A stretch of DNA of 64,000 nt from an uncultured Gammaproteobacteria bacterium (lineage in GTDB: Bacteria > Patescibacteriota > Microgenomatia > UBA12405). Below are positions 2,221 to 51,003 of the stretch, one piece after another (within the stretch, counting starts at the first letter, position 1; every line of letters begins with the position of its first letter). Where the stretch lies: the NCBI GenBank assembly GCA_964549165.1, contig CAZJUH010000002.1, positions 1,896 through 65,895 on the forward strand. The letters run 5' to 3'. Position numbers and translations under genes: made by a program. Under the pieces are notes generated by a model that did not search any database, was not told the origin of the DNA, and worked only from the letters and a program-made list of their open reading frames with translations.

Positions 2221-2254
2221 TTTTAGATTTTAGAATTTAGATTTTAGATTTTTC
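2221..2254. repeat. Tandem heptamer array (TTTTAGA x4, ending TTTAGATTTTTCC) immediately upstream of ftsK
   Basis: Seen directly. Related arrays occur at 5312-5331, 22521-22553 and 50964-51003. Confidence 0.5.
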
Positions 2255-2277
2255 CATTTTTACTCTATACTGTATTT

Positions 2278-4416
2278 ATGCCCCGCGGACGCAAGAAAAA
2301 TCGAATTCTCCCTACCCTAAAACTTAAGCCAGATACTGTCAAGTCAATTTTCTTCATCTTCTTTTTAATTTTGGCCATACTATCAGTATTTTCATTTCTT
2401 CAACAGGGGAGTATTGCTTCCGATGTAAACTTAATTTTAACTAAATATTTTGGGTGGGGTGCAGTTATGGTTCCCTTTTTATTTCTCCTTATCTCTTTTC
2501 TTTTTACAAAAGTTAAATCAGCTCTTCGCGAAGCCAATGTCTTTTTTGGTTTTTGTATTATGTTTTTTGCTCTTCTGGGTCTTTTCAAACAAGGATTTTT
2601 GGGTGCCTTCTTTTGGGAACAATTTTTAGCTTTATTTTCCGAAGTACTTACCTTTATTATTTTCTTTTTTGCTCTGATAGTCGGTTTTGTCGTTCTTTTT
2701 GATACTAATGTGGCTCAAATTTTTAAATTTTTTGCTCATCTTTTTCAAATGATTAAAAGATATTCGGTTGGCCAAAGCAATAAACTAAAAGATAAAAAAG
2801 CCAGAGAAATGGCTAAAAACCCCATCTATCAATCAGAAATGAATACCTCCTCTAGTTCTGAATTAAATCTAAATCGAGATAAAGATGTTTCAAAATCATC
2901 GTCAAAGGCTGATTTTGGAGTAGTCAATATTCCTCCCGTTATCAAAAATTCTTCTCCACTGACCTCTTCTGGCAATCAGACTTGGGTTTATCCCTCACTT
3001 TCAATTTTTGATAATACTCCCGGTGCCAAAGCAGATCGGGGAGATGTTCGTAAAAATGCTCAAATTATTGAGACAACATTAGAATCTTTCGGTATTACTG
3101 CTCGCGTTGCCGAAGTAAACGATAGTCCTTCTGTAACTCAATATGCCCTCGAGGTTTCTCTGGGGACAAAACTAGCCAAAATACTTTCTTTAAGCAACGA
3201 TCTAGCCATGGCCCTGGCTGCTCCTGGTGGCCAAATCAGAGTCGAAGCTCCCATTCCTGGAAGATCTCTTGTTGGTATTGAAATGCCAAACCGTTCTCTT
3301 GAAGTTGTCCCAATCAGGGCAATTTTGGAATCAGATATCATGAAAAATGCCAAAAGCAAAATTTCAGTTCCTCTTGGTCTTGATGTGGCTGGTCAGCCTA
3401 GAATTGCTGATATTTCCAAAATGCCTCACGTTTTAATTGCCGGTCAAACCGGCTCCGGAAAATCAATTTGTATTAATTCCTGGATTTCAACCCTACTTTT
3501 TCGAGCTTCTCCTGATGAAGTTCGTCTGATTATGGTGGATCCAAAACGGGTTGAACTTTCGCAGTACAATGGCATTCCCCATTTACTTACTCCTGTTATC
3601 GTTGAGCCAGAAAAAGTTGTTTCTGCCTTAAAATGGGCTGTTAATGAAATGGAGCATCGTTATAAGCTTTTTACCGAAGTTGGGGCAAAAAATATTGAAG
3701 GTTACAACAACATGTCAGGTTTTCAAGCTATTCCCTATATTTTGATTGTGATTGATGAGCTGGCCGAAATCATGCTTTTTTCTCCCGCCGAAGTTGAAGA
3801 CAATATCTGTCGTATTGCTCAAATGGCCCGGGCCGTCGGCATTCATTTAGTTTTAGCCACCCAGCGGCCATCAGTCAATATTATTACCGGTCTAATCAAG
3901 GCTAATATTCCAACTCGCATTGCCTTTGCTGTTGCCTCAATGACCGATTCTCGGGTCGTATTAGATACTCCAGGTGCCGAAAAATTACTTGGTCGGGGTG
4001 ACATGCTTTATATTCCTCCTGACTTGGCCAAGCCCGTCAGAATTCAGGGCTGTTTTATTTCCGATAAAGAAGTAAATCGCCTAATTGATTTTTTGAAAAC
4101 TCAGCGCAGTGGTGATTACAACGATGAAATCACAAAGCAGCCAGTTAGTAGTCCCAATTCAATTAGTAAAAATATGATGGTCAGTGATGGTGAGGAGCGC
4201 GATGCTGTCTTTGACGATGCCGTTAAATTAATTCAAGATACTGGCAAAGCGTCTGCCTCTTTTATGCAACGTCATTTAAAGCTTGGTTATGCCCGCGCCG
4301 CTAGAGTTCTTGATGAACTTCAAGCGGCTGGTATCGTTGGCCCAGTCAATGGTGCTAAGCCTCGAGAAATTTTAATTCCCCATAAAAGTTCTTCCGATAA
4401 TAATTTGGAAGAATAA
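2278..4416 (+). CDS. ftsK: DNA translocase FtsK/SpoIIIE
   Basis: N-terminal TM segments, Walker A GQTGSGKS, and a C-terminal gamma/winged-helix domain. Confidence 0.9.
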   Translation: MPRGRKKNRILPTLKLKPDTVKSIFFIFFLILAILSVFSFLQQGSIASDVNLILTKYFGWGAVMVPFLFLLISFLFTKVKSALREANVFFGFCIMFFALLGLFKQGFLGAFFWEQFLALFSEVLTFIIFFFALIVGFVVLFDTNVAQIFKFFAHLFQMIKRYSVGQSNKLKDKKAREMAKNPIYQSEMNTSSSSELNLNRDKDVSKSSSKADFGVVNIPPVIKNSSPLTSSGNQTWVYPSLSIFDNTPGAKADRGDVRKNAQIIETTLESFGITARVAEVNDSPSVTQYALEVSLGTKLAKILSLSNDLAMALAAPGGQIRVEAPIPGRSLVGIEMPNRSLEVVPIRAILESDIMKNAKSKISVPLGLDVAGQPRIADISKMPHVLIAGQTGSGKSICINSWISTLLFRASPDEVRLIMVDPKRVELSQYNGIPHLLTPVIVEPEKVVSALKWAVNEMEHRYKLFTEVGAKNIEGYNNMSGFQAIPYILIVIDELAEIMLFSPAEVEDNICRIAQMARAVGIHLVLATQRPSVNIITGLIKANIPTRIAFAVASMTDSRVVLDTPGAEKLLGRGDMLYIPPDLAKPVRIQGCFISDKEVNRLIDFLKTQRSGDYNDEITKQPVSSPNSISKNMMVSDGEERDAVFDDAVKLIQDTGKASASFMQRHLKLGYARAARVLDELQAAGIVGPVNGAKPREILIPHKSSSDNNLEE

Positions 4417-4421
4417 TCAAT

Positions 4422-5018
4422 ATGAAACGTGCTTCAACTATTCTCGAGTCTGCTCGCCTCGACCGGGAAATTGATTTTACTGATATTTGTAAAAAAACAA
4501 AAATTCCACTTCGCTATTTAATCGCCTTCGAAAATGAAAATACTAAAGATTTTCCCGAGGAGCCTTATTGTTCCCTAATGGTCAAGGACTATGCTGAGTT
4601 TTTAGGTTTAAATGGGGAAGAGCTTTTATCTCTATTTCGTCGCGATTATGATCGGCATCATCCCAATGTTGCCAAAAGTCGCTCCTTGTTTTCTTTAACC
4701 CCTCAATTTAGTTTTACCTTTTTTATTATTCTTCTCTCTCTATTTTTTGGTCTTTATTTAATCTCTGAATATTTAAAATTCAATCGCCCGCCTCATTTAG
4801 AAGTAAATTGGCCGGAGAATATTTCCGAGTCTTCAATTAAAATTTCCGGAAAAACTGATCCTGAGTCCACTGTTAAGATAAATGATTCTCTGGTCCTTGT
4901 TGATCTTGAGGGGAATTTTACCAAAGAACTTCAAATTTCTACACCTGAGGCTAAAATTATCATCGAAGCTAAATCTCCAGCTGGCAAAGTTACGATTGAT
5001 GAAAAAGTCCTAAAATAG
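4422..5018 (+). CDS. RodZ-like HTH (XRE) membrane protein
   Basis: N-terminal HTH, a single TM segment and a C-terminal beta-rich domain. Confidence 0.45.
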   Translation: MKRASTILESARLDREIDFTDICKKTKIPLRYLIAFENENTKDFPEEPYCSLMVKDYAEFLGLNGEELLSLFRRDYDRHHPNVAKSRSLFSLTPQFSFTFFIILLSLFFGLYLISEYLKFNRPPHLEVNWPENISESSIKISGKTDPESTVKINDSLVLVDLEGNFTKELQISTPEAKIIIEAKSPAGKVTIDEKVLK

Positions 5019-5032
5019 TCTATACTATTCTC

Positions 5033-5278
5033 ATGGATATCAATCAAATCGTCATCATCATTTCACTTTTGTCTATTTCCACCGTTGTTGTTATTGTCGG
5101 GATCTATCTCATTAAGTTAATAAAAGATCTAAGAGTAACAGTGGGTGAAACCAATAAAATCATTTCTTCAGTTTCTCAGCCTCTTTCTTCTTTTTCTGAA
5201 TTTTTAATGGGTTTCAGAAACGGTTTTTCTCTTTTTAATTCTTTTTTCAATAAAGACAAAAAAGAAAAAAATAATTAA
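5033..5278 (+). CDS. Small hypothetical membrane protein
   Basis: The N-terminal half has a single TM helix. No homology is recognisable. Confidence 0.3.
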   Translation: MDINQIVIIISLLSISTVVVIVGIYLIKLIKDLRVTVGETNKIISSVSQPLSSFSEFLMGFRNGFSLFNSFFNKDKKEKNN

Positions 5279-5311
5279 TTAATTTTTATTTGTTATTTAT
5301 TAATTATTCGA

Positions 5312-5331
5312 CTTTAGACTTTAGAATTTAA
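5312..5331. repeat. Short heptamer array (CTTTAGA x2 followed by ATTTAAT) upstream of ORF 5339
   Basis: Seen directly. Confidence 0.35.
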
Positions 5332-5338
5332 TAAATTT

Positions 5339-5701
5339 ATGTCTTGTTGTAATGATAAAGATTGCGATTGTCATCAACATAGTAGTTTTATTTTTGGTTT
5401 GATTATCGGCTTAGTTATCGCTGCTGTCGTTGCCATTGTTGTCTATAAAAATAACCGTGAAGTCGTCCTTTTAAAATTAAAAAAACAAATTGAAAAATTT
5501 ATTTCGGCCATAGGTCGATCTGCCTCTGGCGGAAAACCAAAATCAGAAGAAATTATCGAATCATTTATTACCCCTAATGTACCGAGAAAAAAAATTATCA
5601 AAAATATAAAGAAAGACGTTGTTATTCCTAAAAACCTAATTATTGCCGACACAACCCCGAAATCAATTTCCTCCAAGCCAAGGAAAATGTTTAAAAAATA
5701 A
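5339..5701 (+). CDS. Hypothetical membrane-anchored Lys-rich protein with a Cys/His-rich N-terminus. It contains a half-copy of the TCCGCC-NNN-GGCGGA element (5519-5533), which encodes RSASGG.
   Basis: TM helix plus the repeat-derived peptide. Confidence 0.35.
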   Translation: MSCCNDKDCDCHQHSSFIFGLIIGLVIAAVVAIVVYKNNREVVLLKLKKQIEKFISAIGRSASGGKPKSEEIIESFITPNVPRKKIIKNIKKDVVIPKNLIIADTTPKSISSKPRKMFKK

Positions 5702-7528
5702 TTGGAGTTTCCCTGCTATAATTCCTCTATGAACGCCAGGCAGTTAAAAGACATTTTTGTCAACTTTTTTGTTTCAAAGGGCCATGTCGAAATTCCCTCC
5801 GCCTCTCTTATTCCCGAAAACGATCCCACCACTCTTTTTATCTCTGCCGGCATGCATCCTTTAGTTCCTTATCTCTTGGGGCAGTCACACCCATTCGGAA
5901 AACGTTTAGTTAATGTTCAAAAATGTTTAAGAACCGGCGATATTGATGAAGTTGGCGACACCTTTCATCACACTTTTTTTGAAATGCTAGGCAACTGGTC
6001 ACTTGGTGATTATTTTAAAGAAGAAATGATTGCCATGTCTTATGAATTTTTAATCAAAATATTAAATTTAGACAAAAATAATCTCGAAGTAACCTGTTTT
6101 GCGGGTAATCAGTCTTCCGAAAAAGACGAAATTAGTGCCAGTAATTGGAAAAAATGTGGTATTCCAAAAAATAAAATAAAATTTATTACTGACAATTGGT
6201 GGGGTCCAGCTGGTACCACCGGTCCTTGTGGTCCGGACAGCGAAATGTTTTTTAATGGTCTTGAAATTTGGAATGACGTTTTTATGGAATTTAATAAAAA
6301 TGCCGACGGAACTTTTTCTAAATTAAAACAACAAAATGTTGATACTGGCATGGGAGTCGAAAGGACCACTGCTGTTTTATCCGGTCTTTCAGATAATTAT
6401 TTGACTCCTATTTGGCAGTCAATTATCAAAAAAATTGAAGAAATTTCGGGGAAATCATATGTAGAGACGAACTGCGTGCGTCTCTCTCAAACACAAAACG
6501 AAAATAACACATCACAAAACATTAAAGGAGACGCATACAATGCGTCTCTACAAATCCAAAAACCATTTCGTATTATTGCTGACCACATTCGTGCTGCTGT
6601 TTTTATCATTGCCGATGGAGTTGAGCCAAGTAACAAAGAAGCCGGATATGTTCTTCGCCGCCTTATTCGCCGGGCCATCCGTCAAGGAAAATTAATCGGA
6701 ATCGAAAATAATTTTCTAAAAATTGTCGCTCTGGTCGTTTTAGACAATCAAGATAATTATGCTGGAATTTATCCAGAACTTGATTTAAATAAAAATAAAA
6801 TATTAGAAACTTTAGAAGCCGAAGAAATTAGATTTCGTCGTACTCTTAACAAAGGTCTCGGTGAAATAACTAAACTAATTGATCGACAAAAAAATGTTTC
6901 TGGCAAACAGGCTTTTGATTTATATCAGTCTTTTGGTTTCCCGGTCGAAATGATTGCTGAAGAATTAAAAAAGAATAATTTATCCTTAGATTTGGCCGAA
7001 TTTAATCGTCTTAAAGATGAGCATCAAAAACAATCTCAAACTCTTTCGGCGGGCAAATTTAAATCAGGTCTTGCCGATCACAGTGAGATTATCACCAAAT
7101 ATCACACCGCCACTCATCTTTTACATGCTGCCCTGCGACAAGTTTTGGGCAAGCATGTTGAGCAGTCTGGTTCAAATATAACTGCTGAGAGGTTGCGTTT
7201 TGACTTTTTCCACCTTGAAAAAGTTTCCGATCTTGAGTTAAAAGAAATTGAAAAACTCATCAATGAACAAATAAATTTAAAATTGCCAGTTACAGTGGAG
7301 TCGATGAAATTTACTGATGTTAAAAAATCTGGGGCTCTGGCCTTTTTTGGCGCTAAATATCCGGAAATTGTTACTGTCTATATCATTGGTGATCCCAAAA
7401 AATATTTTTCCAAAGAAGTCTGTACCGGTCCCCACGTTGATAATACCGGTAAACTCGGAATTTTTGAGATTCAAAAAGAAGAATCCGCGGGTAGTGGCAA
7501 GCGCCGGATTTATGCTATTCTTAAGTAA
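5702..7528 (+). CDS. alaS: Alanyl-tRNA synthetase, ending after the editing domain (no C-Ala domain). The start is probably at 5729.
   Basis: N-terminal catalytic-domain motifs (FHHTFFEMLGNWSLGDYFK) and editing-domain HxxxH (HTATHLLHAAL). Only 608 aa, ending KRRIYAILK. Confidence 0.85.
   Translation: MEFPCYNSSMNARQLKDIFVNFFVSKGHVEIPSASLIPENDPTTLFISAGMHPLVPYLLGQSHPFGKRLVNVQKCLRTGDIDEVGDTFHHTFFEMLGNWSLGDYFKEEMIAMSYEFLIKILNLDKNNLEVTCFAGNQSSEKDEISASNWKKCGIPKNKIKFITDNWWGPAGTTGPCGPDSEMFFNGLEIWNDVFMEFNKNADGTFSKLKQQNVDTGMGVERTTAVLSGLSDNYLTPIWQSIIKKIEEISGKSYVETNCVRLSQTQNENNTSQNIKGDAYNASLQIQKPFRIIADHIRAAVFIIADGVEPSNKEAGYVLRRLIRRAIRQGKLIGIENNFLKIVALVVLDNQDNYAGIYPELDLNKNKILETLEAEEIRFRRTLNKGLGEITKLIDRQKNVSGKQAFDLYQSFGFPVEMIAEELKKNNLSLDLAEFNRLKDEHQKQSQTLSAGKFKSGLADHSEIITKYHTATHLLHAALRQVLGKHVEQSGSNITAERLRFDFFHLEKVSDLELKEIEKLINEQINLKLPVTVESMKFTDVKKSGALAFFGAKYPEIVTVYIIGDPKKYFSKEVCTGPHVDNTGKLGIFEIQKEESAGSGKRRIYAILK
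6459..6553. repeat. Composite in-frame insertion in alaS made of two GAGACG...CGTCTC hairpins. Hairpin A is arms 6463-6469 with 6479-6485. Hairpin B is 6528-6536 with 6540-6548. They flank a 36-nt AC-rich core.
   Basis: Seen directly. The arms match the intergenic palindrome at 322-357 (TGTAGAGACGCAT / ATGCGTCTCTACAA). The encoded segment VETNCVRLSQTQNENNTSQNIKGDAYNASLQIQ lies where AlaS normally has a short linker before R[IV]IADH. Confidence 0.6.
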
Positions 7529-9576: not shown

Positions 9577-9577
9577 A

Positions 9578-10312
9578 ATGAGTTATCTTTATGTCAAAAG
9601 TCCGCCAAAGACTGTCAGGCGAAGAAGGGTTATTTCTTCCAGTCACAAAAAATATTTTGCCTCTTTTTTTCTTTTTTCGGGGATATTTTTATTTCTCTCC
9701 GCTATTTTACCCATTCTTCAGTTTCAGCTCGGTTATTCCACTAAATTTAATCAAATCCTAAACCCTTTATCACCTCAATTTTACAACCATCCTGGTTCAG
9801 TCCTTGGCGATGTAAATACTGATTACACCCAGCTTTCCAATTGGTTCGTCAATGATCCTGGGCAAAACATTTCTTCTCCTTTACCAAATTATTCTCTTTC
9901 TTCTTACTATGTTTCCATCCCAAAGCTAAAAATAAAAGAGGCGCAGGTTATTTTTGGTAGTACTGATTTAAAAAAAAGTTTAATTCATTATCCTAAAACG
10001 GCTCTCCCTGGTCAGTATGGTTCACCTGTAATATTTGGCCACTCGGTTTTACCTCAGTTTTTTAACCCCGAGTCTTATCTAACTATTTTTTCGACCCTTT
10101 ATAAACTAAAACAAGGCGATGAAATTTTTGTCAATTATGATCAAATTCAATATAAATATTTAGTTGAAGAAATGTTTGAAATTCAACCTACGGACCTTTC
10201 GGTCTTAGAGCAACGCTTTGATGGTCGTTACATTACTCTCATTACCTGTTCTCCCCCAGGGACTTATTTGCGTCGTTTAATTATAAAAGGTAGAATTGCT
10301 GACAACCTATGA
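9578..10312 (+). CDS. Sortase-family transpeptidase
   Basis: N-terminal TM anchor, catalytic His context (IFGHSV), the TLxTC motif (ITLITCSPP) and a conserved Arg (YLRRL). Confidence 0.7.
   Translation: MSYLYVKSPPKTVRRRRVISSSHKKYFASFFLFSGIFLFLSAILPILQFQLGYSTKFNQILNPLSPQFYNHPGSVLGDVNTDYTQLSNWFVNDPGQNISSPLPNYSLSSYYVSIPKLKIKEAQVIFGSTDLKKSLIHYPKTALPGQYGSPVIFGHSVLPQFFNPESYLTIFSTLYKLKQGDEIFVNYDQIQYKYLVEEMFEIQPTDLSVLEQRFDGRYITLITCSPPGTYLRRLIIKGRIADNL
9601..9624. repeat. Possible degenerate or deleted copy of the TCCGCC-AAA-GGCGGA element inside the sortase 5' end. It is read in a different frame from the other copies, giving SPPKTVRRR.
   Basis: Both outer arms match the family (TCCGCCAAAG...TCAGGCGAAG), but the central GCGGATCCGCC is replaced by ACTG. 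Confidence 0.3.
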
Positions 10313-11805: not shown

Positions 11806-12891
11806 CTATTTCTCTTTTTTATTTACGAGATCGTTCAATATATTCCAACGTCTTTTTTTCTCACTCATTGGTATTTCATCTTTAAATAGTTTTGCCGACA
11901 CGGTTCCCCTTCGGGGTGAATATTTGTTTAAATAGGTAATTTCAAAATCAACCTTTTTACATACATCAACCGTATTTTGAAACGCTTTTTTATCCTCGCC
12001 GGGAAAGCCAATAATAATATCGGTTGAAAATCTGACATCAGTCACTTTATCTTTAATTTTTTTGACTAAATCTAAATATTCTTTTTGGGTATAGCCACGG
12101 TTCATATTTTTTAGCACTGTATCATCGCCAGATTGAAAGGGGAGATGAAGAAGCCTATCAATATTATGGTATTTACCTATAATTTCTATTAATTCATCCG
12201 AAAAATCCCAGGGGTTACTACTGATAAAAGACACTTTTGTTAATTCTTTTTTCGCCACCTCTTCAAGCAACTTCGGGAAAGCGCTTTTAATTCTTTTTTT
12301 ACCCATTGAAGATTGAAGATTGCAGATTGAAGATTGATTTAAATCTGCCCCATACGAATTTACGTTTTGTCCGATGAGTACAACCTCCTTAAATCCTCTT
12401 TTAATTGCCCCATCAACTTCTTTTAAAATATCCTCAATTTTACGTGATATTTCCTTTCCCCTGGCATAGGGCACAATACAATAAGAACAGTAGTTGTTAC
12501 AGCCGCTACTAATAGTAATTAAAGCTGCTCTTTTTTTATCTCTGAGTGCCTCCACTTCAAAGCTTATCTTTTTAATTGGTAGCATTTCATCGACTCCCTT
12601 AATATTTTTTTTAGAAATCGGCACCAAGCATCCCGTCAAAATAATTCTTCGTCTCGCCGAAGCATTTGCGGAGGCGGATTCCGCTTTTCTTATCTTATCT
12701 ATTAGTCCATACACCCTATTCTCGGCTGATTCCCGAATGACACAGCTATTGATAACAATAAGGTTAGCTTCTTTCCAGTTTTCTACGAGCCGATATCCTT
12801 TGTCTTGATAATAAGTCTTTATTCTTTCCGAATCAGATTCGTTTTGAGCACAGCCAAATGTTTTTAGATATAGTTTATTTTTTCGTAGCAC
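11806..12891 (-). CDS. Radical-SAM methylthiotransferase of the MiaB/RimO family (no TRAM domain seen)
   Basis: N-terminal MTTase domain (TFGCAQNESDSE), radical-SAM CxxxCxxC (SSGCNNYCSYC). Confidence 0.8.
   Translation of the reverse strand: MLRKNKLYLKTFGCAQNESDSERIKTYYQDKGYRLVENWKEANLIVINSCVIRESAENRVYGLIDKIRKAESASANASARRRIILTGCLVPISKKNIKGVDEMLPIKKISFEVEALRDKKRAALITISSGCNNYCSYCIVPYARGKEISRKIEDILKEVDGAIKRGFKEVVLIGQNVNSYGADLNQSSICNLQSSMGKKRIKSAFPKLLEEVAKKELTKVSFISSNPWDFSDELIEIIGKYHNIDRLLHLPFQSGDDTVLKNMNRGYTQKEYLDLVKKIKDKVTDVRFSTDIIIGFPGEDKKAFQNTVDVCKKVDFEITYLNKYSPRRGTVSAKLFKDEIPMSEKKRRWNILNDLVNKKEK
12305..12338. repeat. GATTGAA-type heptamer array (x5) inserted in-frame in the MiaB-like gene. 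It encodes NQSSICNLQSS.
   Basis: Seen directly. A near-identical array occurs at 26955-26987 in an unrelated gene. Confidence 0.55.
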
Positions 12892-22520: not shown

Positions 22521-22553
22521 ATTTAGAATTTAGGCTTTAGGCTTTAGATTTTA
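22521..22553. repeat. Heptamer array TTTAGAATTTAGGCTTTAGGCTTTAGATTTT between rpsL and rpsG
   Basis: Seen directly. Nearly identical to 50971-51003. Confidence 0.5.
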
Positions 22554-26903: not shown

Positions 26904-28080
26904 CCCCTCTATCTTCCGGATAAATCATCGCAAAATTCGCCTGAATTACTTTATTGTTTGATTGAAGATTGGAGATTGAAGATTGATAATTAGTGGTCAC
27001 AATGTGCTGCGCGTATTTAAATTTAAAAACAAATTTTTCTTCAATTTCTTTTTCCTTAAACTCAGGAAAAATTTTTTTTAGATATCCAAAAAAATCTTTT
27101 TCAATCAAAGCATCTTTACAGGTAAAATATTTGTGATTTTGGGGTAAATATGTTCCCATGTAATAAATATTTTTATCGCCATAATTTTCTGTTCCAACTA
27201 AATTAGTGTGTTGAATAAAAGCCAGAAAAGGGGATTTGGTGTCGTTAATGTTGTGCCAATAAAATTTGCTTAAATTTTGTTTTGAAGAAAAAACTACCGT
27301 TACCGCTCCCAAATAACCAATATTTTCTATCGGCGCCGTACTAATAATTTTGTCATATTCTTTTTCTAATTTTCCAAAATCTAAAATCTCATTTCTCATC
27401 TCTATTCTTCCCCCCATCTTTTTGATTCTCTTTTCTAGTTCATCAATAATCAGTTGAAATCCACCATTCATATATCCCAAATATTCCCTTGCCACGCCAA
27501 AGCCTTTGGCGTCGGCGGGTTTTCCTTTCGAATTCCCCCTGGTATGAATTCTAGCCCACATCCAGGCCATTGAAATATCTTTATACCTATCACTAAATTT
27601 ACCTTTGAGCAGTGGCTCCCAGACAACTCGATAAGCTCTGTCTCCACACCATTTTTTCATCCATTTATAGGCTAAAACATTTTCAAATTTTTTCCAATTA
27701 TTTTTTTTTTCGAGATATATTTTGACCAGACCCAGTCGCAGTTTATCAATTAAACTGAGTGGCTTAAATTTCAATAAATCCATGGCTCCGGCAAAAGGAT
27801 ATACTTTCCCCTCGTAGTAAAGGGCCGTCTTACTCTCATACCATTTCAATTTATTTTCCAAGCCTAATTCTTTTATTAAGGCGATTATTTCTTTATCGCC
27901 TTTAAAAATATGATGATAGGCTTTTTCCAAATTAGTCCCCTCTATTTTAAATCCGCCTAAAAGTCCACCCAAATCCTCGCTCTTTTCAAATATAGTTACT
28001 TGATATTTTTTTTGTAATAGCCGATAAGCGGCTACAAGTCCAGTAATTCCTCCGCCCACCACTAATATTTTCGACTTCAT
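26842..28080 (-). CDS. FAD-dependent oxidoreductase (amine-oxidase / UDP-galactopyranose-mutase-like fold)
   Basis: N-terminal GGGITGL dinucleotide-binding motif. Its 3' end overlaps the rfbD 3' end by about 62 nt. Confidence 0.5.
   Translation of the reverse strand: MKSKILVVGGGITGLVAAYRLLQKKYQVTIFEKSEDLGGLLGGFKIEGTNLEKAYHHIFKGDKEIIALIKELGLENKLKWYESKTALYYEGKVYPFAGAMDLLKFKPLSLIDKLRLGLVKIYLEKKNNWKKFENVLAYKWMKKWCGDRAYRVVWEPLLKGKFSDRYKDISMAWMWARIHTRGNSKGKPADAKGFGVAREYLGYMNGGFQLIIDELEKRIKKMGGRIEMRNEILDFGKLEKEYDKIISTAPIENIGYLGAVTVVFSSKQNLSKFYWHNINDTKSPFLAFIQHTNLVGTENYGDKNIYYMGTYLPQNHKYFTCKDALIEKDFFGYLKKIFPEFKEKEIEEKFVFKFKYAQHIVTTNYQSSISNLQSNNKVIQANFAMIYPEDRGVNYAVREGEKAAVLILQNRK
26955..26987. repeat. 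GATTGAA-type heptamer array inserted in-frame in the FAD-oxidoreductase gene. It encodes NYQSSISNLQSNN.
   Basis: Seen directly. Paralogous to 12305-12338. Confidence 0.55.
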
Positions 28081-28126
28081 TTATGCTATGATACTATGTT
28101 TAAAATCAATTAATAAAACTAAAATT

Positions 28127-43183: not shown

Positions 43184-43195
43184 AATTTTAACCAT

Positions 43196-43666
43196 ATGGC
43201 AACCACAAAAACAAATACCACTCCTGTCGTTACCGCTCCTGTCTCTGCCAAAGGCGGATCCGCCTCAGGCGGAAAAAAAACTAAATCTCTTCCCAAGGCT
43301 AAAAAAGTTGTTAAAAGTCTGGCCGAAGGTCGACTTTACATTCAGTCAACCTTCAACAATACTATCGTCACTATTACCGATATTAAGGGCAATACTCTCG
43401 CCTGGTCAAGTGCTGGTCAGTGTGGCTTTAAGGGTTCTCGTAAATCGACTCCCTATGCCGCCACCACTGCTATCGAAAAGGCTCTTGAGGCTGTCAGACC
43501 AATTGGAATTAAAAAATTAGCAGTTTATCTAAAAGGACCAGGTACCGGCCGAGATGCCGCTCTTCGTTTTCTTCGCGCCAAGCGAGATTTTGAAGTCGAT
43601 CTCATTGCCGATGTCACCCCCATTCCTCACAACGGCCCCAGGCCTCCAAAGGCCCGCCGAGTTTAA
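43196..43666 (+). CDS. rpsK: 30S ribosomal protein S11, with an N-terminal extension that carries a repeat-element insertion
   Basis: S11 core from [14 protein letters not shown] onwards. The extension contains [10 protein letters not shown]. Confidence 0.9.
43247..43273. repeat. TCCGCC-NNN-GGCGGA double-hairpin element centred on GGATCC, inserted in-frame in rpsK (encodes AKGGSASGG)
   Basis: Seen directly. Near-identical copies at 45640-45666 and 51003-51032, with a half-copy at 5519-5533. Confidence 0.65.
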
Positions 43667-43677
43667 AAAAAATTACC

Positions 43678-44307
43678 ATGAGAAGTACACTTGATACTAA
43701 ATGTCGACTTTGCCGTAGTGAAGGCGTAAAACTTTATTTAAAAGGCGCTCGTTGTTTTTCTCCTAAATGTCCCCTTGAAAAGAAAGGAGCTGTCAGGCCT
43801 GGAATGCACGGTACCAAAAGAAGTCGAAAGCCCACCGATTATGGGATTCAACTAAGAGCCAAACAAAAAGCTAAGCGTTTTTATGGAATTGCCGAGACTC
43901 AGTTCAAAAATTATTACACCGCCGCCAAAAAATTAAAAGGTTTGGTCGGTGAAAATTTATTAATTCTTATCGAAAGAAGACTGGACAATGTTATTTATCT
44001 ATCTGGTCTCTGTTTATCCAGAAGTCACGCCAAGCAGTTAATCAGTCATAAAGATGTTTTTGTAAATGGTAAAGTTTTAAATATTTCTTCTTATTTAGTA
44101 AAAGTAGGGGATGTCATTACTTTAAAAGCAAAAAATCTTAAAAAAAATGGCGAAACTTATAAATACGCCGATAAGGACTTTAAGGCTCCGCAGTGGATTG
44201 ATTTAGACAAATCCAAATCCAGCGCCAAAATCATTGCCCTTCCCATCATCGATCAGAATCATAACGGGATCGATGTAAATTTAATTATTGAATATTATTC
44301 AAGATAA
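43678..44307 (+). CDS. rpsD: 30S ribosomal protein S4 (Zn-binding N-terminus)
   Basis: CRLCRSEGVKL...CFSPKC. Confidence 0.95.
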   Translation: MRSTLDTKCRLCRSEGVKLYLKGARCFSPKCPLEKKGAVRPGMHGTKRSRKPTDYGIQLRAKQKAKRFYGIAETQFKNYYTAAKKLKGLVGENLLILIERRLDNVIYLSGLCLSRSHAKQLISHKDVFVNGKVLNISSYLVKVGDVITLKAKNLKKNGETYKYADKDFKAPQWIDLDKSKSSAKIIALPIIDQNHNGIDVNLIIEYYSR

Positions 44308-44322
44308 CAAAAGGAGAAAACT

Positions 44323-45243
44323 ATGATCGATACTAGTCGCTTTCATATTAAAACCATTAAACAAACTTCCACTTATGGCAAGTTTGAGCTTACTCCACTT
44401 GTTGGAGGTTTAGGTCACACCCTCGGTAATAGTCTTCGTCGAATTCTTTTAATCACTATTCCCGGTGCGGCAATCACTCACATTAAAATCGATGGTGCCA
44501 CTCATTTATTTACCACTTTACCTGGGGTAAAAGAAGATCTCGTCGAAATTTCGCTCAATCTAAAAAAGATTAAATTTGCCTATGCCAAGGAAGAACCTAC
44601 GATATTAATTTTAGACAAAAAAGGCAAGGGTATTGTTACTGCCGCTGATATTGCTGATAGCTCTGTCTGTAAGGTTTCTAATCCAGATCAGGTCATCGCT
44701 ACTCTAACCGACACCAAAGCCCACCTTAAAATTGAAATGACGGTTGAGCGTGGGGTTGGCTATTCTCTGGCTCGTGAACAAAAAACTGATATTGTTGGTG
44801 AAATTATCCTCGATGCCACCTTTACTCCCGTTTTAAAAGCCAATTATACTGTTGAGCCCACTCGTCTTGGTAAAAAGAGCAATTACGATAAATTAACCAT
44901 GGAGATTTGGACCGATGCTTCAATTGAGCCTCTCACTGCCCTAAAAATGGCCGCCAAAGATTTAATTAATGCCCTTGACCAGATTGTTGATACTCGTGAA
45001 TTCGAAGACGAAGTCATCACCCTCGACTCTATGCCCATCAACCAAATGGCTGAAATCTCAGTTGAAGAAATTGAATTACCTCTTCGGGTGACCAACGCCC
45101 TCAAAAAAGCTGATTATTCGACCATTAACGATTTAGTTAAGGCCGGTAGAGCCGATGTCAGTAAAGCCAAAAACGTCGGTGAAAAATCATTAAGAATTAT
45201 TGATGCCTGGCTTGAGGAAAAGGGCTTTTCCTGGAATAAATAA
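44323..45243 (+). CDS. rpoA: DNA-directed RNA polymerase alpha subunit
   Basis: N-terminal domain plus C-terminal domain. Confidence 0.95.
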   Translation: MIDTSRFHIKTIKQTSTYGKFELTPLVGGLGHTLGNSLRRILLITIPGAAITHIKIDGATHLFTTLPGVKEDLVEISLNLKKIKFAYAKEEPTILILDKKGKGIVTAADIADSSVCKVSNPDQVIATLTDTKAHLKIEMTVERGVGYSLAREQKTDIVGEIILDATFTPVLKANYTVEPTRLGKKSNYDKLTMEIWTDASIEPLTALKMAAKDLINALDQIVDTREFEDEVITLDSMPINQMAEISVEEIELPLRVTNALKKADYSTINDLVKAGRADVSKAKNVGEKSLRIIDAWLEEKGFSWNK

Positions 45244-45244
45244 G

Positions 45245-45727
45245 ATGAGACATCGAATTGCAGGCTATCATTTAGGTCGGACCATTAATCAAAGAAAAAA
45301 TCTGTATAGATCTCAGCTGCGCTCTTTGTTTACTTACGGTTTTATCAATACGACCGTTACCAAAGCCAAATCTATCCTGCCTCTGGCAGAAAAAATTGCC
45401 CTCGCCGCCGTCAAGGCCGACCTAAATTCTCGTCGCTATATTTTTACCTTTTTTCAAGATCGAAATATCGTAAATAGGATAGTAACAGCTTTTTCTACTA
45501 CTTTTCCCGGCCAGACTCAAAACTTTACTCAGTTAAAAAATGTAAAATTCCGGCAAGGGGATAATGCTTTAATTGTTCGATTAAGTTTTATCAAAGAGGT
45601 AAATAGTCTCCCCGTCATTAAAGAAAAAGAAAAAAAATCCGCCAAAGGCGGATCCGCCTCAGGCGGAGAAGTTAAAAAGAAAGTTCCTGCCAAGAAAGCA
45701 GTCGCAAAGAAGGAGACTAAAAAATGA
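45245..45727 (+). CDS. rplQ: 50S ribosomal protein L17, with a Lys-rich C-terminal extension of about 40 aa that carries the repeat element
   Basis: L17 core from MRHRIAGYHLGRT. The tail reads [17 protein letters not shown]. Confidence 0.9.
   Translation: MRHRIAGYHLGRTINQRKNLYRSQLRSLFTYGFINTTVTKAKSILPLAEKIALAAVKADLNSRRYIFTFFQDRNIVNRIVTAFSTTFPGQTQNFTQLKNVKFRQGDNALIVRLSFIKEVNSLPVIKEKEKKSAKGGSASGGEVKKKVPAKKAVAKKETKK
45640..45666. repeat. TCCGCC-NNN-GGCGGA double-hairpin element inserted in-frame in the rplQ 3' extension
   Basis: Seen directly. GCCAAAGGCGGATCCGCCTCAGGCGGA is identical to the rpsK copy. Confidence 0.65.
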
Positions 45728-46146
45728 AAGCTAAAACAACAGTTTTAAAAGGAAGCAATCCTGTTCGATTATGGATATTAGTTGACTTATCGGGTAAAAC
45801 TCTAGGTCGAGTCGCCACTGAAATTGCAGCCTTATTAATGGGCAAAAATAAAGCGACCTTCTCTTATCATCGTGATGATGGTGACTATGTCGTGGCCATC
45901 AACGCTAAAGATATTGTCGTTACTGGCAAAAAATTAAAACAAAAAATTTATTATCATCACACTGCTTATACCGGCAATTTAAACGAGTTATCTCTAAAAG
46001 ATCTTTTAAAGAAAGACCCGAGGAAAGTAATCGAATTTGCTGTTTACGGTATGCTTCCCAAAAATCATCTTCGGGCCAAAAGAATGCGTCGTTTAAAAAT
46101 ATTTATTAACGCCGAGCATAAATATGCTGAAAAATTAGGTAAATAA
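45724..46146 (+). CDS. rplM: 50S ribosomal protein L13
   Basis: Canonical L13. Confidence 0.95.
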   Translation: MKAKTTVLKGSNPVRLWILVDLSGKTLGRVATEIAALLMGKNKATFSYHRDDGDYVVAINAKDIVVTGKKLKQKIYYHHTAYTGNLNELSLKDLLKKDPRKVIEFAVYGMLPKNHLRAKRMRRLKIFINAEHKYAEKLGK

Positions 46147-46149
46147 AAT

Positions 46150-46566
46150 ATGGCTACTTCTAAAACATCAAAAAAAAACTTAACCACTTATGTCTATGCT
46201 CTCGGCAGACGCAAAGCTGCCGTGGCGACTCTAAAATTATTTAAAGGTAAGGGTGAATCAAGTATCAACTCTCGTCCTTTAAATAAATATTTTCCTCTCA
46301 CTTTCTCTCGTTTAGATTTACCCTTTGTTACCACTGAGACTCTAAATAAATACTACTTTAGCGCTAAAATTGTTGGTGGAGGCAAAACTGGCCAGCTCGC
46401 TGCTTTAATTTTAGCTATTTCTCGCGCCCTCAAAAAAAGTAATCCTGATATGACTTTAGCCTTAGCCCAGGCTAATTTACTGACAGTCGATGCCCGTGTT
46501 CGCGAACGCCGCATGGTTGGTACCGGTGGCAAAGCGAGACGCCAAAAGCAATCTCCAAAGCGTTAA
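46150..46566 (+). CDS. rpsI: 30S ribosomal protein S9
   Basis: Canonical S9 with a C-terminal ...RRQKQSPKR. Confidence 0.95.
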   Translation: MATSKTSKKNLTTYVYALGRRKAAVATLKLFKGKGESSINSRPLNKYFPLTFSRLDLPFVTTETLNKYYFSAKIVGGGKTGQLAALILAISRALKKSNPDMTLALAQANLLTVDARVRERRMVGTGGKARRQKQSPKR

Positions 46567-46585
46567 GCTAGTGGTAAAATAAAAA

Positions 46586-48304
46586 GTGGCCGAAAAACGT
46601 TCTAATAGTAATCTTAAGTTGTTTGTATTAGCCAAGCCTTATACTGGCCTTATTCTTCTGGTTCTGGCGGTCACTTTTACCTCTAATGGCTTAAATCTGA
46701 TACTTCCAAAGCTTGTTGCCCAAACTATCGACGTTTTTCGATCAAATAATTCTCTTCCCGTCACTTTTATTAGAAATTTTTCCTTGATTATTGTTTTTAT
46801 TTTTGTTTTTTCTTCTCTTCAAAGTATTTTACAAACCTATTTGTCAGAAAAATTTGCCCGTGATTTAAGGGAAAAATTAATTAATAAAATTTCTAATCAA
46901 CCCTATCTATTTATTCATCAGTTTACTCCAGAAAAATTGCTAACTAATTTAATCGCTGATGTCGACAATATAAAGCTGGTTATTTCTCAGGCCTTAATTC
47001 AGGTTTTTGCTTCCATCATTATCATTATTGGGGCCACTTATTTGTTAATTTCTATTAATTGGAAATTAGCTTTGATTGTTCTATCAATTATTCCCTTTAT
47101 TGTGGTTATCTTCATTCTTATTTTTCACAAAATCAGAAAATATTTCCTCCGCTCCCAGTCCATTATCGATAAGCTCAACCAAGTTATTAACGAAAGTATT
47201 ATTGCTTCCTCTTTAATTCGGATTATTAATTCTCAACAATGGGAATTCTTAAAATTTAGCGCTGTCAGCCAGGAAGCCCGGCAAGTTGGTCTGTCGATTT
47301 TAAAATTATTTTCCAGTTTAGTCCCACTTATTAGCCTGATTGCCAACGCCAGTATCGTGGCTATTTTATTAATTGGCGGCAAATCCATAGTTTTGGGGAC
47401 CTTCACTATTGGTTCTTTCACCGCTTTTATGAGTTACATCTCAATGCTTATCTTTCCAATCGTAGTTTTGGGTTTTATTAGTAATTTGATTGCTCGGGCT
47501 GCCGTTTCTTTTGAACGAATTAATCAGGTTTTAGAAGCTCCGGTTGAAAAAATTTATGGCGATATCGAGACCGAAATTAAAGGAAATATTGTTTTTAAGA
47601 ATGTAAATTTAATCCTAAATAATAAACAAATTCTTAAAAACGTTTCATTTAATCTCAAAGCCAATCGTAAAACGGCCATTCTTGGACCTACTGCCGCTGG
47701 TAAAACCCAGATTTTTTATCTGATTGCCGGTTTAATAAAACCGAGTTCCGGTCAAATTTTAATTGATAATGTCCCTCTTTTTGACTATTCCCAAAATTGC
47801 TTAAGCAGTCAGATTGGTTTGGTTTTTCAGGATTCTTCCATCTTTAATGCTACTATTTTGGAAAATATTAATTTTAAGAATAAAAACGATCCTAGTGCTG
47901 TTAATAAAGCCATTGAGACCGCAGAGCTTAAAAATTTTATTGAGACTCTACCCCATGGTTTAAATACTAAAATTGCTGAAAGGGGCAACAATTTATCCGG
48001 TGGTCAAAAACAAAGAATTACTTTAGCTCGGGCTTTGGTTCTTAATCCCAAGATTTTGTTATTGGACGATTTTACTGCCAGGGTTGACAAAGATACCGAA
48101 AAAAGGATTATTGCTAATTTAGACAAAAATTATTCCGAAACCACCGAAGTGATTATCACTCAGCAAATTTCTTCTGCCCTGGATGCCGATCAAATAATTT
48201 TAGTCATGGAAGGAGAGATTTTGGCGGTGGGCACTCATGCTTCTCTTCTGAAAAAATCTCCTGAATACAGACAAATTTATAATTCACAGCAGGATTTGAC
48301 ATGA
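46586..48304 (+). CDS. ABC transporter permease/ATPase (type I exporter, MsbA-like), subunit 1, with a GTG start
   Basis: Six TM segments plus an NBD (Walker A GPTAAGKT, signature LSGGQKQR). Confidence 0.85.
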   Translation: MAEKRSNSNLKLFVLAKPYTGLILLVLAVTFTSNGLNLILPKLVAQTIDVFRSNNSLPVTFIRNFSLIIVFIFVFSSLQSILQTYLSEKFARDLREKLINKISNQPYLFIHQFTPEKLLTNLIADVDNIKLVISQALIQVFASIIIIIGATYLLISINWKLALIVLSIIPFIVVIFILIFHKIRKYFLRSQSIIDKLNQVINESIIASSLIRIINSQQWEFLKFSAVSQEARQVGLSILKLFSSLVPLISLIANASIVAILLIGGKSIVLGTFTIGSFTAFMSYISMLIFPIVVLGFISNLIARAAVSFERINQVLEAPVEKIYGDIETEIKGNIVFKNVNLILNNKQILKNVSFNLKANRKTAILGPTAAGKTQIFYLIAGLIKPSSGQILIDNVPLFDYSQNCLSSQIGLVFQDSSIFNATILENINFKNKNDPSAVNKAIETAELKNFIETLPHGLNTKIAERGNNLSGGQKQRITLARALVLNPKILLLDDFTARVDKDTEKRIIANLDKNYSETTEVIITQQISSALDADQIILVMEGEILAVGTHASLLKKSPEYRQIYNSQQDLT

Positions 48305-50067
48305 CCAACTACACCTTAAAATTTTTTGATAAAGACACTCGGGAAAAACTTCATTTTTGGAGATTAGCCCGTCAATTTTGGCACATTTTAAAGGATGAAA
48401 AATCAAAATTAATTATTGCCACCATTTCCATCGCTGTTAATTCTGCGGCCAGCATTGCCGCTCCTTTTATTTTGGGTTATACCATTGACCATTTTATCAT
48501 CCAAAAAAATTTAAATGGCCTCACTAATTTTTCCTTAATTTTGGCCGGAATCTATTTAATCACTTTTGCGACTAATTTTATTCAGGTTCGCACCATGGGT
48601 ACTTTAGGCCAAAATATCTTATTTAAGCTCAGAAATTCCCTTTTTTCCAAAATTCAAAGCTTGCCTTTAAAATTTTTCAATCAAAATAAACTTGGTGATT
48701 TAATTTCTCGGATCAACAACGACACTGATAAATTAAATCAATTCTTTTCTCAACAATTAAACCAGTTTGTCGGCAATATTTTTACTCTTATTGGTATTGG
48801 TATCTTTATTTTCTTTATCAACTACCGTCTGGCTATGGTGACTTTATCCGCTGCTATTTTTTTGTTTATTATTACTTCAATTATTTCTCCCTGGATTGCC
48901 CGGCGCAATCGACTCAGTTTACAAAGTTTGGGTGGTCTTTCCGCCGAAGTTTCCGAAAGTCTTAATTATTTTAAAGTTATTGTCTCTTTTAACCGCCGTG
49001 ATTATTTTCGGGAAAATTTTAATCATTCCAACACTGAAAATTTTCAGATGTCCTTTCGTTCCGGTATTGCTAACAATTTAATGGGCCCCATCTATGACTT
49101 CTCTGGCAATTTGGCTACTTTATTAGTTTTACTTTATGGAATTTTTTTGATCACTCAAGGCCAACTGACAATCGGTATTTTAATTTCTTTCTTAAGTTAT
49201 ACCGATCGTTTTTATGGACCACTTCGTCAAATGGCCTCTCTTTGGGCCGGAGTTCAAACCGCCCTGGCAGCTTGGAACCGGATTTTTGAAATTCAGCACT
49301 TGAAATCGGACATGGAAATTTTACCCGAATCTAAGGAAAAAGATACCAAATCAATGATGCACTTTGAAAATGTAGTGTTTGGTTACGACGAAGAAAACCC
49401 GGTTCTGAAGAAAGTTAATTTCAATTTTCTAGAAGGCAAAACTTACGCCATTGTCGGTCCTACCGGCGGTGGTAAAAGTACCATTGCTTCGCTCATGTCT
49501 CGGCTCTACGATCCCCAAAAGGGTACCGTTTATCTCAACGATTGTGATATCCGTACTTATCAGCCCAAAGATTTATCCCAAAAAATTGGCTTTATCTTAC
49601 AGGAACAATATTTATTTACCGGTACGGTCGGGGAGAATATTGTTTACGGCAATCTGGAATTCAAAAAATATTCTAAAAAGAAACTGGAAAAATTATTAAG
49701 TGAATTAAATTTAGATTCTTTAATTAATAAATTCGAAGACGGCCTTGACACTAAAATTGTTTATAACAGTGAAAGCATTAGTCTAGGTCAAAAACAACTG
49801 ATTTCTTTTATCCGGGCTATCATCCGCCGGCCAGAATTATTAATTATGGATGAAGCTACCGCTAATATTGATACTGTTACCGAGGGCTTGTTGCAAACAA
49901 TTATTAATAAATTACCAAAAAATACCACTAAGGTTATTATTGCTCATCGTTTAAATACCATCAAAAATGCCGACGAAATCTACTTTGTTAACAATGGCCA
50001 GGTTGTCACGGCTCAGTCTCTTGAACATTCAGTCGAGATGATTACCAAAAGCAATAAGAACTCTTAA
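48301..50067 (+). CDS. ABC transporter permease/ATPase (type I exporter), subunit 2. Likely a heterodimer partner.
   Basis: Six TM segments plus an NBD (GPTGGGKST). The signature motif is degenerate (ISLGQKQL), which suggests an asymmetric heterodimer. Confidence 0.85.
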   Translation: MTNYTLKFFDKDTREKLHFWRLARQFWHILKDEKSKLIIATISIAVNSAASIAAPFILGYTIDHFIIQKNLNGLTNFSLILAGIYLITFATNFIQVRTMGTLGQNILFKLRNSLFSKIQSLPLKFFNQNKLGDLISRINNDTDKLNQFFSQQLNQFVGNIFTLIGIGIFIFFINYRLAMVTLSAAIFLFIITSIISPWIARRNRLSLQSLGGLSAEVSESLNYFKVIVSFNRRDYFRENFNHSNTENFQMSFRSGIANNLMGPIYDFSGNLATLLVLLYGIFLITQGQLTIGILISFLSYTDRFYGPLRQMASLWAGVQTALAAWNRIFEIQHLKSDMEILPESKEKDTKSMMHFENVVFGYDEENPVLKKVNFNFLEGKTYAIVGPTGGGKSTIASLMSRLYDPQKGTVYLNDCDIRTYQPKDLSQKIGFILQEQYLFTGTVGENIVYGNLEFKKYSKKKLEKLLSELNLDSLINKFEDGLDTKIVYNSESISLGQKQLISFIRAIIRRPELLIMDEATANIDTVTEGLLQTIINKLPKNTTKVIIAHRLNTIKNADEIYFVNNGQVVTAQSLEHSVEMITKSNKNS

Positions 50068-50082
50068 GAGTTAAAATAATTA

Positions 50083-50811
50083 ATGTCTTTAATCCAATCT
50101 TTAATTCTCGCTTTTGTTCAGGGTCTTACCGAATTTTTGCCTATTTCTTCTGATGGACACTTAAATTTAGTTCAATATCTTTTTGGTTTTTCCCCTTCTC
50201 TTACTTTTGATATTTATCTTCATCTTGCTACCTTTTTTTCAGTTATTTTTTTCTTCAGAAAAAGACTCTCATATTTTTTCTCAAATATAAAATATATTTT
50301 TATTGGTTCAATTCCAGTCATAGTTACTGGTTTTTTTTTAAAAGATTACATAACAACTATTTTTATTAATCCTAAACTTCTTCCTTTTTTCTTTTTAATC
50401 ACCGCCCTCTATACCCTCTTTACAAAATTTATTAAAAAACAAGATAAAAAAATCACCTATTTATCAGCCTTAATTATTGGTATATTTCAAGCTCTTGCTC
50501 TTCTCCCGGGAGTATCTCGAAGTGGGGGAACTATCTTTTCCGCCCTTCTTTTAGGTCTTTCGCCAATTAATGCTTTTAATTTTTCTTTTTCATTATTTAT
50601 TCCTGCCACATTTGGGGCAATTTTACTCGAAATAAAAAATATCTTATCTCTAAATATCCTAACCTTAAACAATCTTGTGGCTTTTATTGTTACCTTTTTA
50701 GTTGGACTACTTGCTTTAAACTTTCTTGAAAAAGCACTTACTAGCAACAGATTTTGGTTTTTCGGTATTTACACCCTAATTTTATCTCTGACTTTGTTTT
50801 TTGTTCTTTAG
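50083..50811 (+). CDS. uppP: Undecaprenyl-diphosphatase (BacA/UppP)
   Basis: GLTEFLPISSDGHL and PGVSRSG motifs. Confidence 0.85.
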   Translation: MSLIQSLILAFVQGLTEFLPISSDGHLNLVQYLFGFSPSLTFDIYLHLATFFSVIFFFRKRLSYFFSNIKYIFIGSIPVIVTGFFLKDYITTIFINPKLLPFFFLITALYTLFTKFIKKQDKKITYLSALIIGIFQALALLPGVSRSGGTIFSALLLGLSPINAFNFSFSLFIPATFGAILLEIKNILSLNILTLNNLVAFIVTFLVGLLALNFLEKALTSNRFWFFGIYTLILSLTLFFVL

Positions 50812-50963
50812 GCCTCGGCAATTTTGCCCGTAATCTGAATTTCTTTAAATTTTTTAATACTCTTGATTGTTTTTCTTAAAGCTTTAAAGCGCGCCTCAAA
50901 ATTTATTACCTCAACATAAAATTCCGACACTACCAAAAGCTCTTTATTTTTATTTTTCATATT

Positions 50964-51003
50964 TTTTAGGTTTTAGAATTTAGGCTTTAGGTTTTAGATT
51001 TTT
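50964..51003. repeat. Heptamer array TTTTAGGTTTTAGAATTTAGGCTTTAGGTTTTAGATTTTTCC, abutting the GGATCC palindrome
   Basis: Seen directly. Confidence 0.5.

Follow-up and report, generated by a model that had tools for sequence, protein, structure and literature searches.

TTTAG heptamer repeats in the gene junctions of a Candidatus Shapirobacteria lineage

A 64-kb stretch of the genome of an uncultured bacterium (contig CAZJUH010000002.1; hereafter the window, meaning the whole stretch analysed) contains tandem heptamers of the form TTTAGRN at exactly four places, on the + strand each time. The TTTAG arrays of this lineage are a real, non-random repeat family. Comparison with related genomes gives good support to a heptanucleotide family, (TTTAGRN)2-5, that is confined to one sub-clade of Candidatus Shapirobacteria, and equally to the view, drawn from the sequences of the junctions, that the arrays arose there by insertion or expansion. 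As to their role, we tentatively prefer, with less than even confidence, a single-stranded leader or spacer that would help to initiate the next cistron and may be bound by protein. The arrays in the window are the following, where nt stands for nucleotides and ORF for open reading frame.

Array 1 (locus 1), 2222-2249, + strand: TTTAGAT TTTAGAA TTTAGAT TTTAGAT, between the proS stop (2216) and the ftsK ATG (2278).
Array 2 (locus 2), 5306-5333, + strand: ATTCGAC TTTAGAC TTTAGAA TTTAATA, ending 12 nt before the ATG of the ORF at 5339-5701.
Array 3 (locus 3), 22522-22549, + strand: TTTAGAA TTTAGGC TTTAGGC TTTAGAT, between rpsL and rpsG, with its end 20 nt short of the rpsG ATG (22570).
Array 4 (locus 4), 50965-50999, + strand: TTTAGGT TTTAGAA TTTAGGC TTTAGGT TTTAGAT, lying between the start of a small - strand ORF (ATG at 50960) and the end of korB.

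A sequence-only reading of the window had described four loci of TTTAG-centred heptamers, and they read as it claimed: Tandem Repeats Finder reports a period of 7 at all four. The two-unit pattern TTTAGNNTTTAG has 11 matches in the window, exclusively on the + strand, against 0.58 expected from shuffles, and the three-unit pattern has 7 against 0.00. Relaxed patterns gave no further arrays in the window, and lone TTTAG pentamers outside the arrays are unbiased by strand (139 versus 156). An exact-run comparison of repeat periods, which is too strict for units as heterogeneous as these, gave three runs of period 7 against 0.1 expected. The units seen are TTTAGAT, TTTAGAA, TTTAGGC, TTTAGGT and TTTAGAC. 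The four to five heptamers claimed per locus are present at loci 1, 3 and 4, whereas locus 2 has two perfect units only, TTTAGAC TTTAGAA (5313-5326), with the degenerate ATTCGAC and TTTAATA on either side. The near-identical block said to be common to loci 3 and 4 is borne out, with 30 of 31 bases identical. Intergenic heptameric simple-sequence repeats (SSRs) are characterized by a 7-nt unit repeated head to tail in at least two copies and above chance, and that is what the window contains.

With three units, every + frame contains a TAG and every - frame a TAA (read from CTAAA). Because 7 is not a multiple of 3 and stops occur in all six frames, an array cannot lie inside a gene; the constant intergenic location is thus forced and says nothing on function. 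The arrays also lack ATG, GTG and TTG on either strand, and RNA folding of the array segments is no better than that of shuffles (z from -1.3 to +0.9). All 13 arrays compared end in TTTAGA(T/C/A) followed by a T-rich heptamer, and several are preceded by TTAATT. A search against Rfam returned tRNA-Pro only. From the last unit to a + strand ATG the distance is 12-28 nt, compared with the 20-60 nt first noted, and the fixed orientation put forward with it stands insofar as all arrays lie on the + strand, but array 4 has the opposite (CTAAA) sense to its downstream gene. GC skew is negative throughout the window, and neither a gene-relative nor a chromosome-relative orientation rule is significant with four to five independent loci.

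The host was placed in Candidatus Shapirobacteria, within the Candidate Phyla Radiation (CPR), by homologues of S7 and FtsK, and run SRR13007705 includes a contig of 14.7 kb that shares 99.993% identity with the window and has the same rpsL-rpsG array. Relatives were retrieved by protein homology and synteny (for example FtsK for L129, L131 and L133) and not by motif, so that the comparison is unbiased toward arrays. Their DNA is 75-84% identical to the window, and they are thus different species. At locus 1, orthologous arrays of two to three units (such as TTTAGAG TTTAGAC) are found in L129, L131 and L133, and the 23-nt proS-ftsK spacer of L138 has none. The locus 2 junction of the same three relatives holds three TTTAG units each, with other linker bases; TTTAG is intact in 9 of 9 of these units, position 6 is mostly A and position 7 can be any base. 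In L138 this junction measures 2 nt and has no array. Array 3 is identical in the same-strain contig L128, and between rpsL and rpsG of the relatives there is no array (6 nt in L124, 18 nt in L126); L121 has instead an unrelated, inverted-repeat-like insert of 149 nt, rich in CCAAT/ATTGG (9852-10000). As judged from these junctions, the rpsL-rpsG array is specific to this lineage. Array 4 is retained in L135 and absent from L136 (3-nt junction), and in L137 (10896-10934) its place between korB and the small ORF is taken by (AATTACG)4. Conversely, L121 and L122 have an array before fusA, TTTTAGATTTTAGAATTTAGAC, which ends 12 nt before the ATG, and the corresponding region of the window (28081-28126) has none.

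Every array therefore fills a junction that measures only 2-23 nt in array-free relatives. Three of them (loci 1, 2 and 4) persist across species with a nearly constant core and with varying linkers and unit number, and are kept between the same genes with variation in both length (2-5 units) and sequence, as is typical of heptameric SSRs. It is well supported that the arrays evolve through units gained or lost and through linker substitutions, and that new copies appear at other junctions. Short repeats in general seem to land in the korB/small-ORF and rpsL-rpsG junctions. Within species, unit number is unchanged in five pairs from different samples (window/L128, L129/L130, L131/L132, L133/L134 and L121/L122), a test of little power because the pairs are 99.6-100% identical.

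One rival explanation is a small non-autonomous mobile, or copy-paste, element of ~30-45 nt with the structure TTAATT-(TTTAGNN)n-T-run that spreads between junctions; a mobile repeat family was among the options of the sequence-only reading. The near-identity of loci 3 and 4 (although locus 3 is recent), a 23-nt match between the L121 fusA array and locus 1 of the window, the 5' TTAATT and 3' T-run common to several arrays and the position of new insertions exactly at the 5' edge of the start codon are all in keeping with it. Two free positions per unit, however, make chance identity between arrays non-negligible, and the phase of locus 1 runs into degenerate ATTAGNN units beside an ATTAG seed that is present in L138, which looks like expansion in situ. 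No inverted arms flank the arrays, and no consistent duplication distinguishes filled from empty sites, in contrast to miniature inverted-repeat transposable elements. The repeat family, inserted or expanded in minimal junctions, is thus upheld, but its mobility is not demonstrated, since no terminal inverted repeats, target-site duplications or associated transposase were seen, and we regard a mobile element as distinctly unlikely.

The motif extends beyond these relatives. A scan of a genome collection (one genome per species, four TTTAGNN units; the window's own genome is not among the matches listed) gave at least 120 TTTAGNN loci, with Microcoleus and Bacteroidota dominating the matches listed. 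These include Cyanobacteria, Bacteroidota, Acidobacteriota and several Patescibacteria, and since they span several phyla the motif class is widespread but heterogeneous. In Microcoleus (L003-L120, for example L016, L031 and L049) perfect (TTTAGAT)4-6 arrays stand within a recurring GTCAGTCGAT-array-TGACCCCACGGATAAATCCGGGGGCTTGA context, with an ATG or TTG 5 nt away on the opposite strand, which suggests a dispersed composite element.

The main rival to a leader or spacer role is that the arrays are functionless products of polymerase slippage, from which heptameric repeats readily arise, tolerated in junctions because within an ORF they would truncate it, their core being kept by unit turnover and not by selection. 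Presence or absence is lineage-specific at every locus, unit number varies between species, and different heptamers occupy the same junctions in relatives; the six-frame stops account for the location without any function. Heptameric SSRs are moreover over-represented in many bacteria, for which an explanation from the polymerase footprint has been offered (PMC4692102), and TTTAGNN arrays occur in many phyla among the matches listed. Recent slippage would nevertheless homogenize the units, as in the perfect (TTTAGAT)n arrays of Microcoleus, whereas here linkers differ between neighbouring units with identical cores. Three orthologous junctions keep their arrays across species that are only 75-84% identical, and the terminal TTTAGA(N) plus T-run is common to 13 of 13 arrays. 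On balance, slippage without function is possible but somewhat doubtful.

The evidence for a role at the RNA level comes from orientation and context. At four of five independent junctions the array lies in the sense of the downstream gene (ftsK, the ORF at 5339, rpsG and, in a relative, fusA). A Shine-Dalgarno-like motif (GGAG/GAGG/AGGA) was found upstream of 7 of 70 window genes and of none of the four array-adjacent genes; translation in this organism must therefore start by some means other than Shine-Dalgarno pairing, a need that an unstructured U/A stretch ahead of the start codon, free of starts and rich in stops, would suit. In the mechanism that we prefer, transcription of the array would give UUUAGRN repeats in the leader or between cistrons, 12-28 nt ahead of a start codon with no Shine-Dalgarno sequence. 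This single-stranded segment, free of start codons and rich in stops, would act as a landing site or spacer when translation of the next cistron begins. It may be recognized unit by unit by a single-strand-binding protein, candidates being ribosomal protein S1, a cold-shock-domain protein or a HutP-like oligomer reading UAG at 7-nt spacing. A conserved core with free linkers at 7-nt spacing is, by analogy, the pattern to be expected from such a unit-by-unit reader of single-stranded RNA. Successive 7-bp sites lie ~240 degrees apart on the duplex, which is awkward for a duplex binder and irrelevant for a single-strand binder. The protein-binding iteron suggested earlier has no support, given this spacing and the lack of any replication gene or origin context.

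Several observations weigh against the leader or spacer role. Array 4 is opposite in sense to its downstream gene, and the array-to-ATG distances are variable (12, 12, 20 and 28 nt). The arrays are dispensable, because relatives without them manage on junctions of 2-23 nt, and the fact that other repeats fill the same junctions in L137 and L121 speaks for tolerance rather than a specific need. Pfam gave no HutP, cold-shock or other repeat-binding domain among the 27 window proteins scanned, and no S1 gene was identified among the window proteins checked. Orientation toward adjacent genes is not the same elsewhere in the genome collection. In other Patescibacteria among the matches listed, the start codon is faced in the CTAAA sense at four of eight loci and in the TTTAG sense at none of eight, an analysis that uses crude ORF-based gene starts and is indicative only; since the CTAAA sense is the commoner one there, a strand-specific RNA motif is not general.

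A different function, at the DNA level, was considered, in which the arrays give RNA polymerase -35 and UP-like contacts at the starts of transcription units. The arrays are A/T-rich, like UP elements, and at locus 1 the arrangement fits.

ftsK promoter-like block, 2243-2271, + strand: TTTAGA (of the last unit), a gap of 17 nt and TATACT, which lies 6 nt from the ATG; found by promoter scan.

The spacing from TTTAGA to TATACT is 17 nt in the window and 18 nt in three relatives, so that the layout TTTAGA-17/18 nt-TATACT-6 nt-ATG is conserved in four species. In L129, L131 and L133 the arrays are followed by a nearly invariant TTTTTCTATTTTTACTC-TATACT-GTATTT-ATG, and a ATTTTTACTC-TATACT-GTAYTT-ATG block is conserved in four other species, including the array-free L138, whose 23-nt spacer keeps ATTTTTACTC-TATACT-GTACTT-ATG. 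The TATACT block belongs to ftsK and not to proS, because the type of prolyl-tRNA synthetase (ProRS) encoded upstream differs between genomes. The enzyme is of archaeal type (ProRS-C_1 domain, 473 aa) in the window (proS at 795-2216) and in L129, and in L131 (8266-9948) a bacterial-type ProRS of 560 aa with an editing domain occupies the position upstream of ftsK; this type switch is a gene replacement at a fixed locus. At many operon starts of the window (490, 2278, 5033, 15036 and, on the - strand, 57052 and 58629) a TATAAT or TATACT box precedes the start codon by 5-9 nt, which, taken with the few Shine-Dalgarno-like motifs, suggests widespread leaderless mRNAs and Shine-Dalgarno-independent initiation in this CPR organism. 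Since the same layout recurs at these starts, a putative leaderless-type promoter at ftsK, with the array in the -35/upstream position, is a reasonable inference, and at this gene the last unit of the proposed leader could additionally serve in the -35 position.

The promoter idea cannot readily be extended to the other arrays. The sigma-70 spacing to a -10 box (16-18 nt) is found at locus 1 only, and the arrays at loci 2 and 3 and before fusA in L121 end 12-20 nt from the ATG, with no workable -10 box. The rpsL-rpsG and locus 2 junctions are operon-internal and nearly of zero length in relatives, the array at locus 4 is reversed relative to its gene, and the -10 block of L138 stands without any array. 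In this A/T-rich window the promoter scan is uninformative, with few more matches than background (28 found versus 15.7 expected). The promoter or UP-like element of the sequence-only reading thus agrees with the spacing to TATACT at locus 1 and fails at loci 2, 3 and 4 and at the fusA array of the sister species; from the layout of these sites it appears plausible for ftsK only, and as a general function we consider it unlikely.

A further proposal is that of phase-variable contingency repeats that switch expression by unit number. The precedent is hmw1A of Haemophilus influenzae, where heptanucleotide repeats in the promoter and 5' untranslated region can set expression by their number (PMC8262952 and PMC12721329). 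As in hmw1A, the repeats here have 7 bases and are tandem, and lie between promoter and start codon in upstream regions. The hmw1A repeats are, however, long hypervariable contingency loci of a host-adapted pathogen, whereas the present arrays have only 2-5 units, showed no change of length in the five within-species pairs (99.6-100% identical and hence of low power) and precede housekeeping genes (ftsK, rpsG and fusA). Phase variation is accordingly extremely improbable.

The TTTAG arrays have closer counterparts among known heptamers. TAACTGA repeats occur in marine Beggiatoaceae and also in some Cyanobacteria and Bacteroidetes (MacGregor 2015, PMC4679880); they are present in 2-6 copies, in forward orientation just upstream of start codons without a ribosome-binding site, including in ribosomal-protein operons with fusA, and their function is unproven, with S1, Csp or CsrA put forward as binders (PMC4679880). 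The two have in common a 7-base unit in 2-6 copies that is often split by related heptamers, an almost exclusively intergenic location owing to stop codons, the absence of predicted RNA structure, a position mostly toward start codons without a ribosome-binding site, in ribosomal-protein operons and before fusA, and downstream genes of no coherent function. The forward placement is seen here in three of the four window arrays and in the L121 fusA array, which face an ATG at 12-28 nt, with array 4 reversed. The unit itself is different, TTTAG plus two free bases, and stops occur on both strands here and on one strand there. TAACTGA arrays mostly end 1 nt from the start codon, as opposed to 12-28 nt, and the present host belongs to a different phylum (CPR/Patescibacteria), with a count of four loci per 64 kb.

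The second counterpart is the GGGAATC, or GGGGA(T/C)T, heptamer family of Xanthomonas and Nostoc (Rehm et al. 2015, PMC4692102), whose arrays have mostly ~4 units and, in two Xanthomonas species, occupy the same gene junctions while varying in length and sequence (PMC4692102). The same source cites cyanobacterial short tandemly repeated repetitive (STRR) heptamers and reports since 2007 of an over-representation of seven-base repeats in bacterial intergenic DNA. Both the GGGAATC and the TTTAG arrays are intergenic heptameric SSRs, commonly of ~4 units, with conserved and free positions, and in both cases related species share the junctions that hold arrays, although the arrays themselves vary extensively in length and sequence. 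The former are G-rich and capable of forming G-quadruplexes, whereas the latter are A/T-rich and unstructured. Given the difference in motif, the TTTAG arrays are not members of the TAACTGA or GGGAATC families; they are the same kind of element, namely bacterial intergenic heptameric repeats. Iterons are repeats of ~17-22 bp next to a rep gene or origin, and here the unit is 7 bp and the neighbours are proS/ftsK, rpsL/rpsG and uppP/korB. Telomere-like TTTAGGG repeats were rejected, as their unit is a different one and the present arrays lie inside a bacterial chromosome.

A lead on mechanism is provided by the geometry of HutP, with no claim of membership. The HutP site in the hut leader of Bacillus subtilis has three UAG triplets with 4-nt spacers, which bind to one face of the hexamer (PMC2425495), and the crystallized RNA contained XAG three times with U4 spacers (PMC2425495). 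Three or more UUUAGNN units likewise amount to at least three UAG triplets with 4-nt spacers, and TAG-N4-TAG-N4-TAG was found in the window at loci 1, 3 and 4 only and on the + strand only. In contrast to hut, there is no second site and no terminator to open at loci 1-3: folding gave no terminator-like hairpin after arrays 1-3, and the hairpin after array 4 is a separate inserted palindrome. The spacers of HutP targets are also sequence-independent, whereas the TT before TAG is conserved here. The binding site of CspB is one heptanucleotide (PMC1904285). A bolder proposal is that the TTTAG cores are the binding code of an oligomeric single-stranded RNA-binding protein that coordinates the translation of essential genes (ftsK, rpsG and fusA); such a protein could be HutP- or TRAP-like, or a chain of cold-shock or S1 oligonucleotide-binding (OB) folds that take one heptamer each. 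We consider this very unlikely, but if true it would amount to a small post-transcriptional regulon, encoded by simple-sequence repeats, in a CPR lineage with few Shine-Dalgarno motifs.

Of the genes that flank the arrays, those for ProRS, UppP/BacA and a KorB-like thiamine pyrophosphate (TPP) enzyme were confirmed by Pfam, and those for FtsK, S12 and S7 from homologue tables; the neighbours of locus 2 are ORFs of 81 and 120 aa with no family match. Two further features adjoin array 4.

Small conserved ORF of 50 aa, 50808-50960, - strand: its start codon is 4 nt from array 4, which it reads in the CTAAA sense.
GGATCC-centred palindrome GCCAGAGGCGGATCCGCCTTTGGC, 51006-51029, no strand assigned: adjoins array 4; a separate inserted element that extends the korB frame.

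The small ORF has no Pfam match, and since three relatives (L135, L136 and L137) have a predicted ORF of 52 aa at this position it is probably a real gene, as far as this conservation indicates. The korB frame passes through the palindrome before it stops in array 4, at a TAA provided by the last unit (50994-50996). That array 4 abuts the GGATCC palindrome had been recognized from the outset. With a fold z of -3.95 the palindrome was the sole structured segment among those folded, and it is absent from L135, which retains array 4. Palindromes of this GGATCC-centred CCGCCAAAGGCGGATCCGCCTCAGGCGG type lie in frame in three window genes (43244-43273, 45638-45667 and 51002-51033), that is, in the N-terminal tail of the S11 ORF, the C-terminal tail of the L17 ORF and the end of korB, where each encodes ~10 residues, and another lies inside a MiaB-like gene of L129 (20147-20180). 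This appears to be a small palindromic element able to persist where it falls in the tails and loops of proteins.

A second heptamer family, (ATTGAAG)n, is found on the + strand at 12305-12337 and 26960-26986, inside - strand ORFs for a MiaB-like radical SAM protein and an amine oxidase, where it encodes an SSIFNLQ-type peptide in variable loops. It places TGA in all + strand frames and leaves the coding strand open, and in L129 the GGATCC palindrome is inserted within an (ATTGAAG)n array. The spacer of 187 nt that precedes the ORF at 490 contains a perfect 36-nt palindrome at 322-357 (TATTGTAGAGACGCATCA/TGATGCGTCTCTACAATA), which is listed as terminator-like on the - strand. In the two relatives with a fusA array, rpoC is present as two ORFs (298 + 942 aa in L121, 5709-9426; 619 + 602 aa in L122, 3350-7032), compared with one ORF of 1246 aa in the window, and this may be an assembly or frameshift error or a real split.

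Heptamers have been described in Xanthomonas, Nostoc, Beggiatoaceae and cyanobacteria without an accepted function. The data presented here add an A/T-rich member from a CPR lineage whose genomes are small and whose genes are very tightly spaced, and in which close species allow a base-by-base comparison of empty with filled junctions. The arrays mark gene boundaries, which is of use in annotation, and one of them ends a korB frame that had been extended by insertion of a palindrome. The combination of a conserved 5-nt core and two free positions makes the choice between a binding code and slippage debris a testable one.

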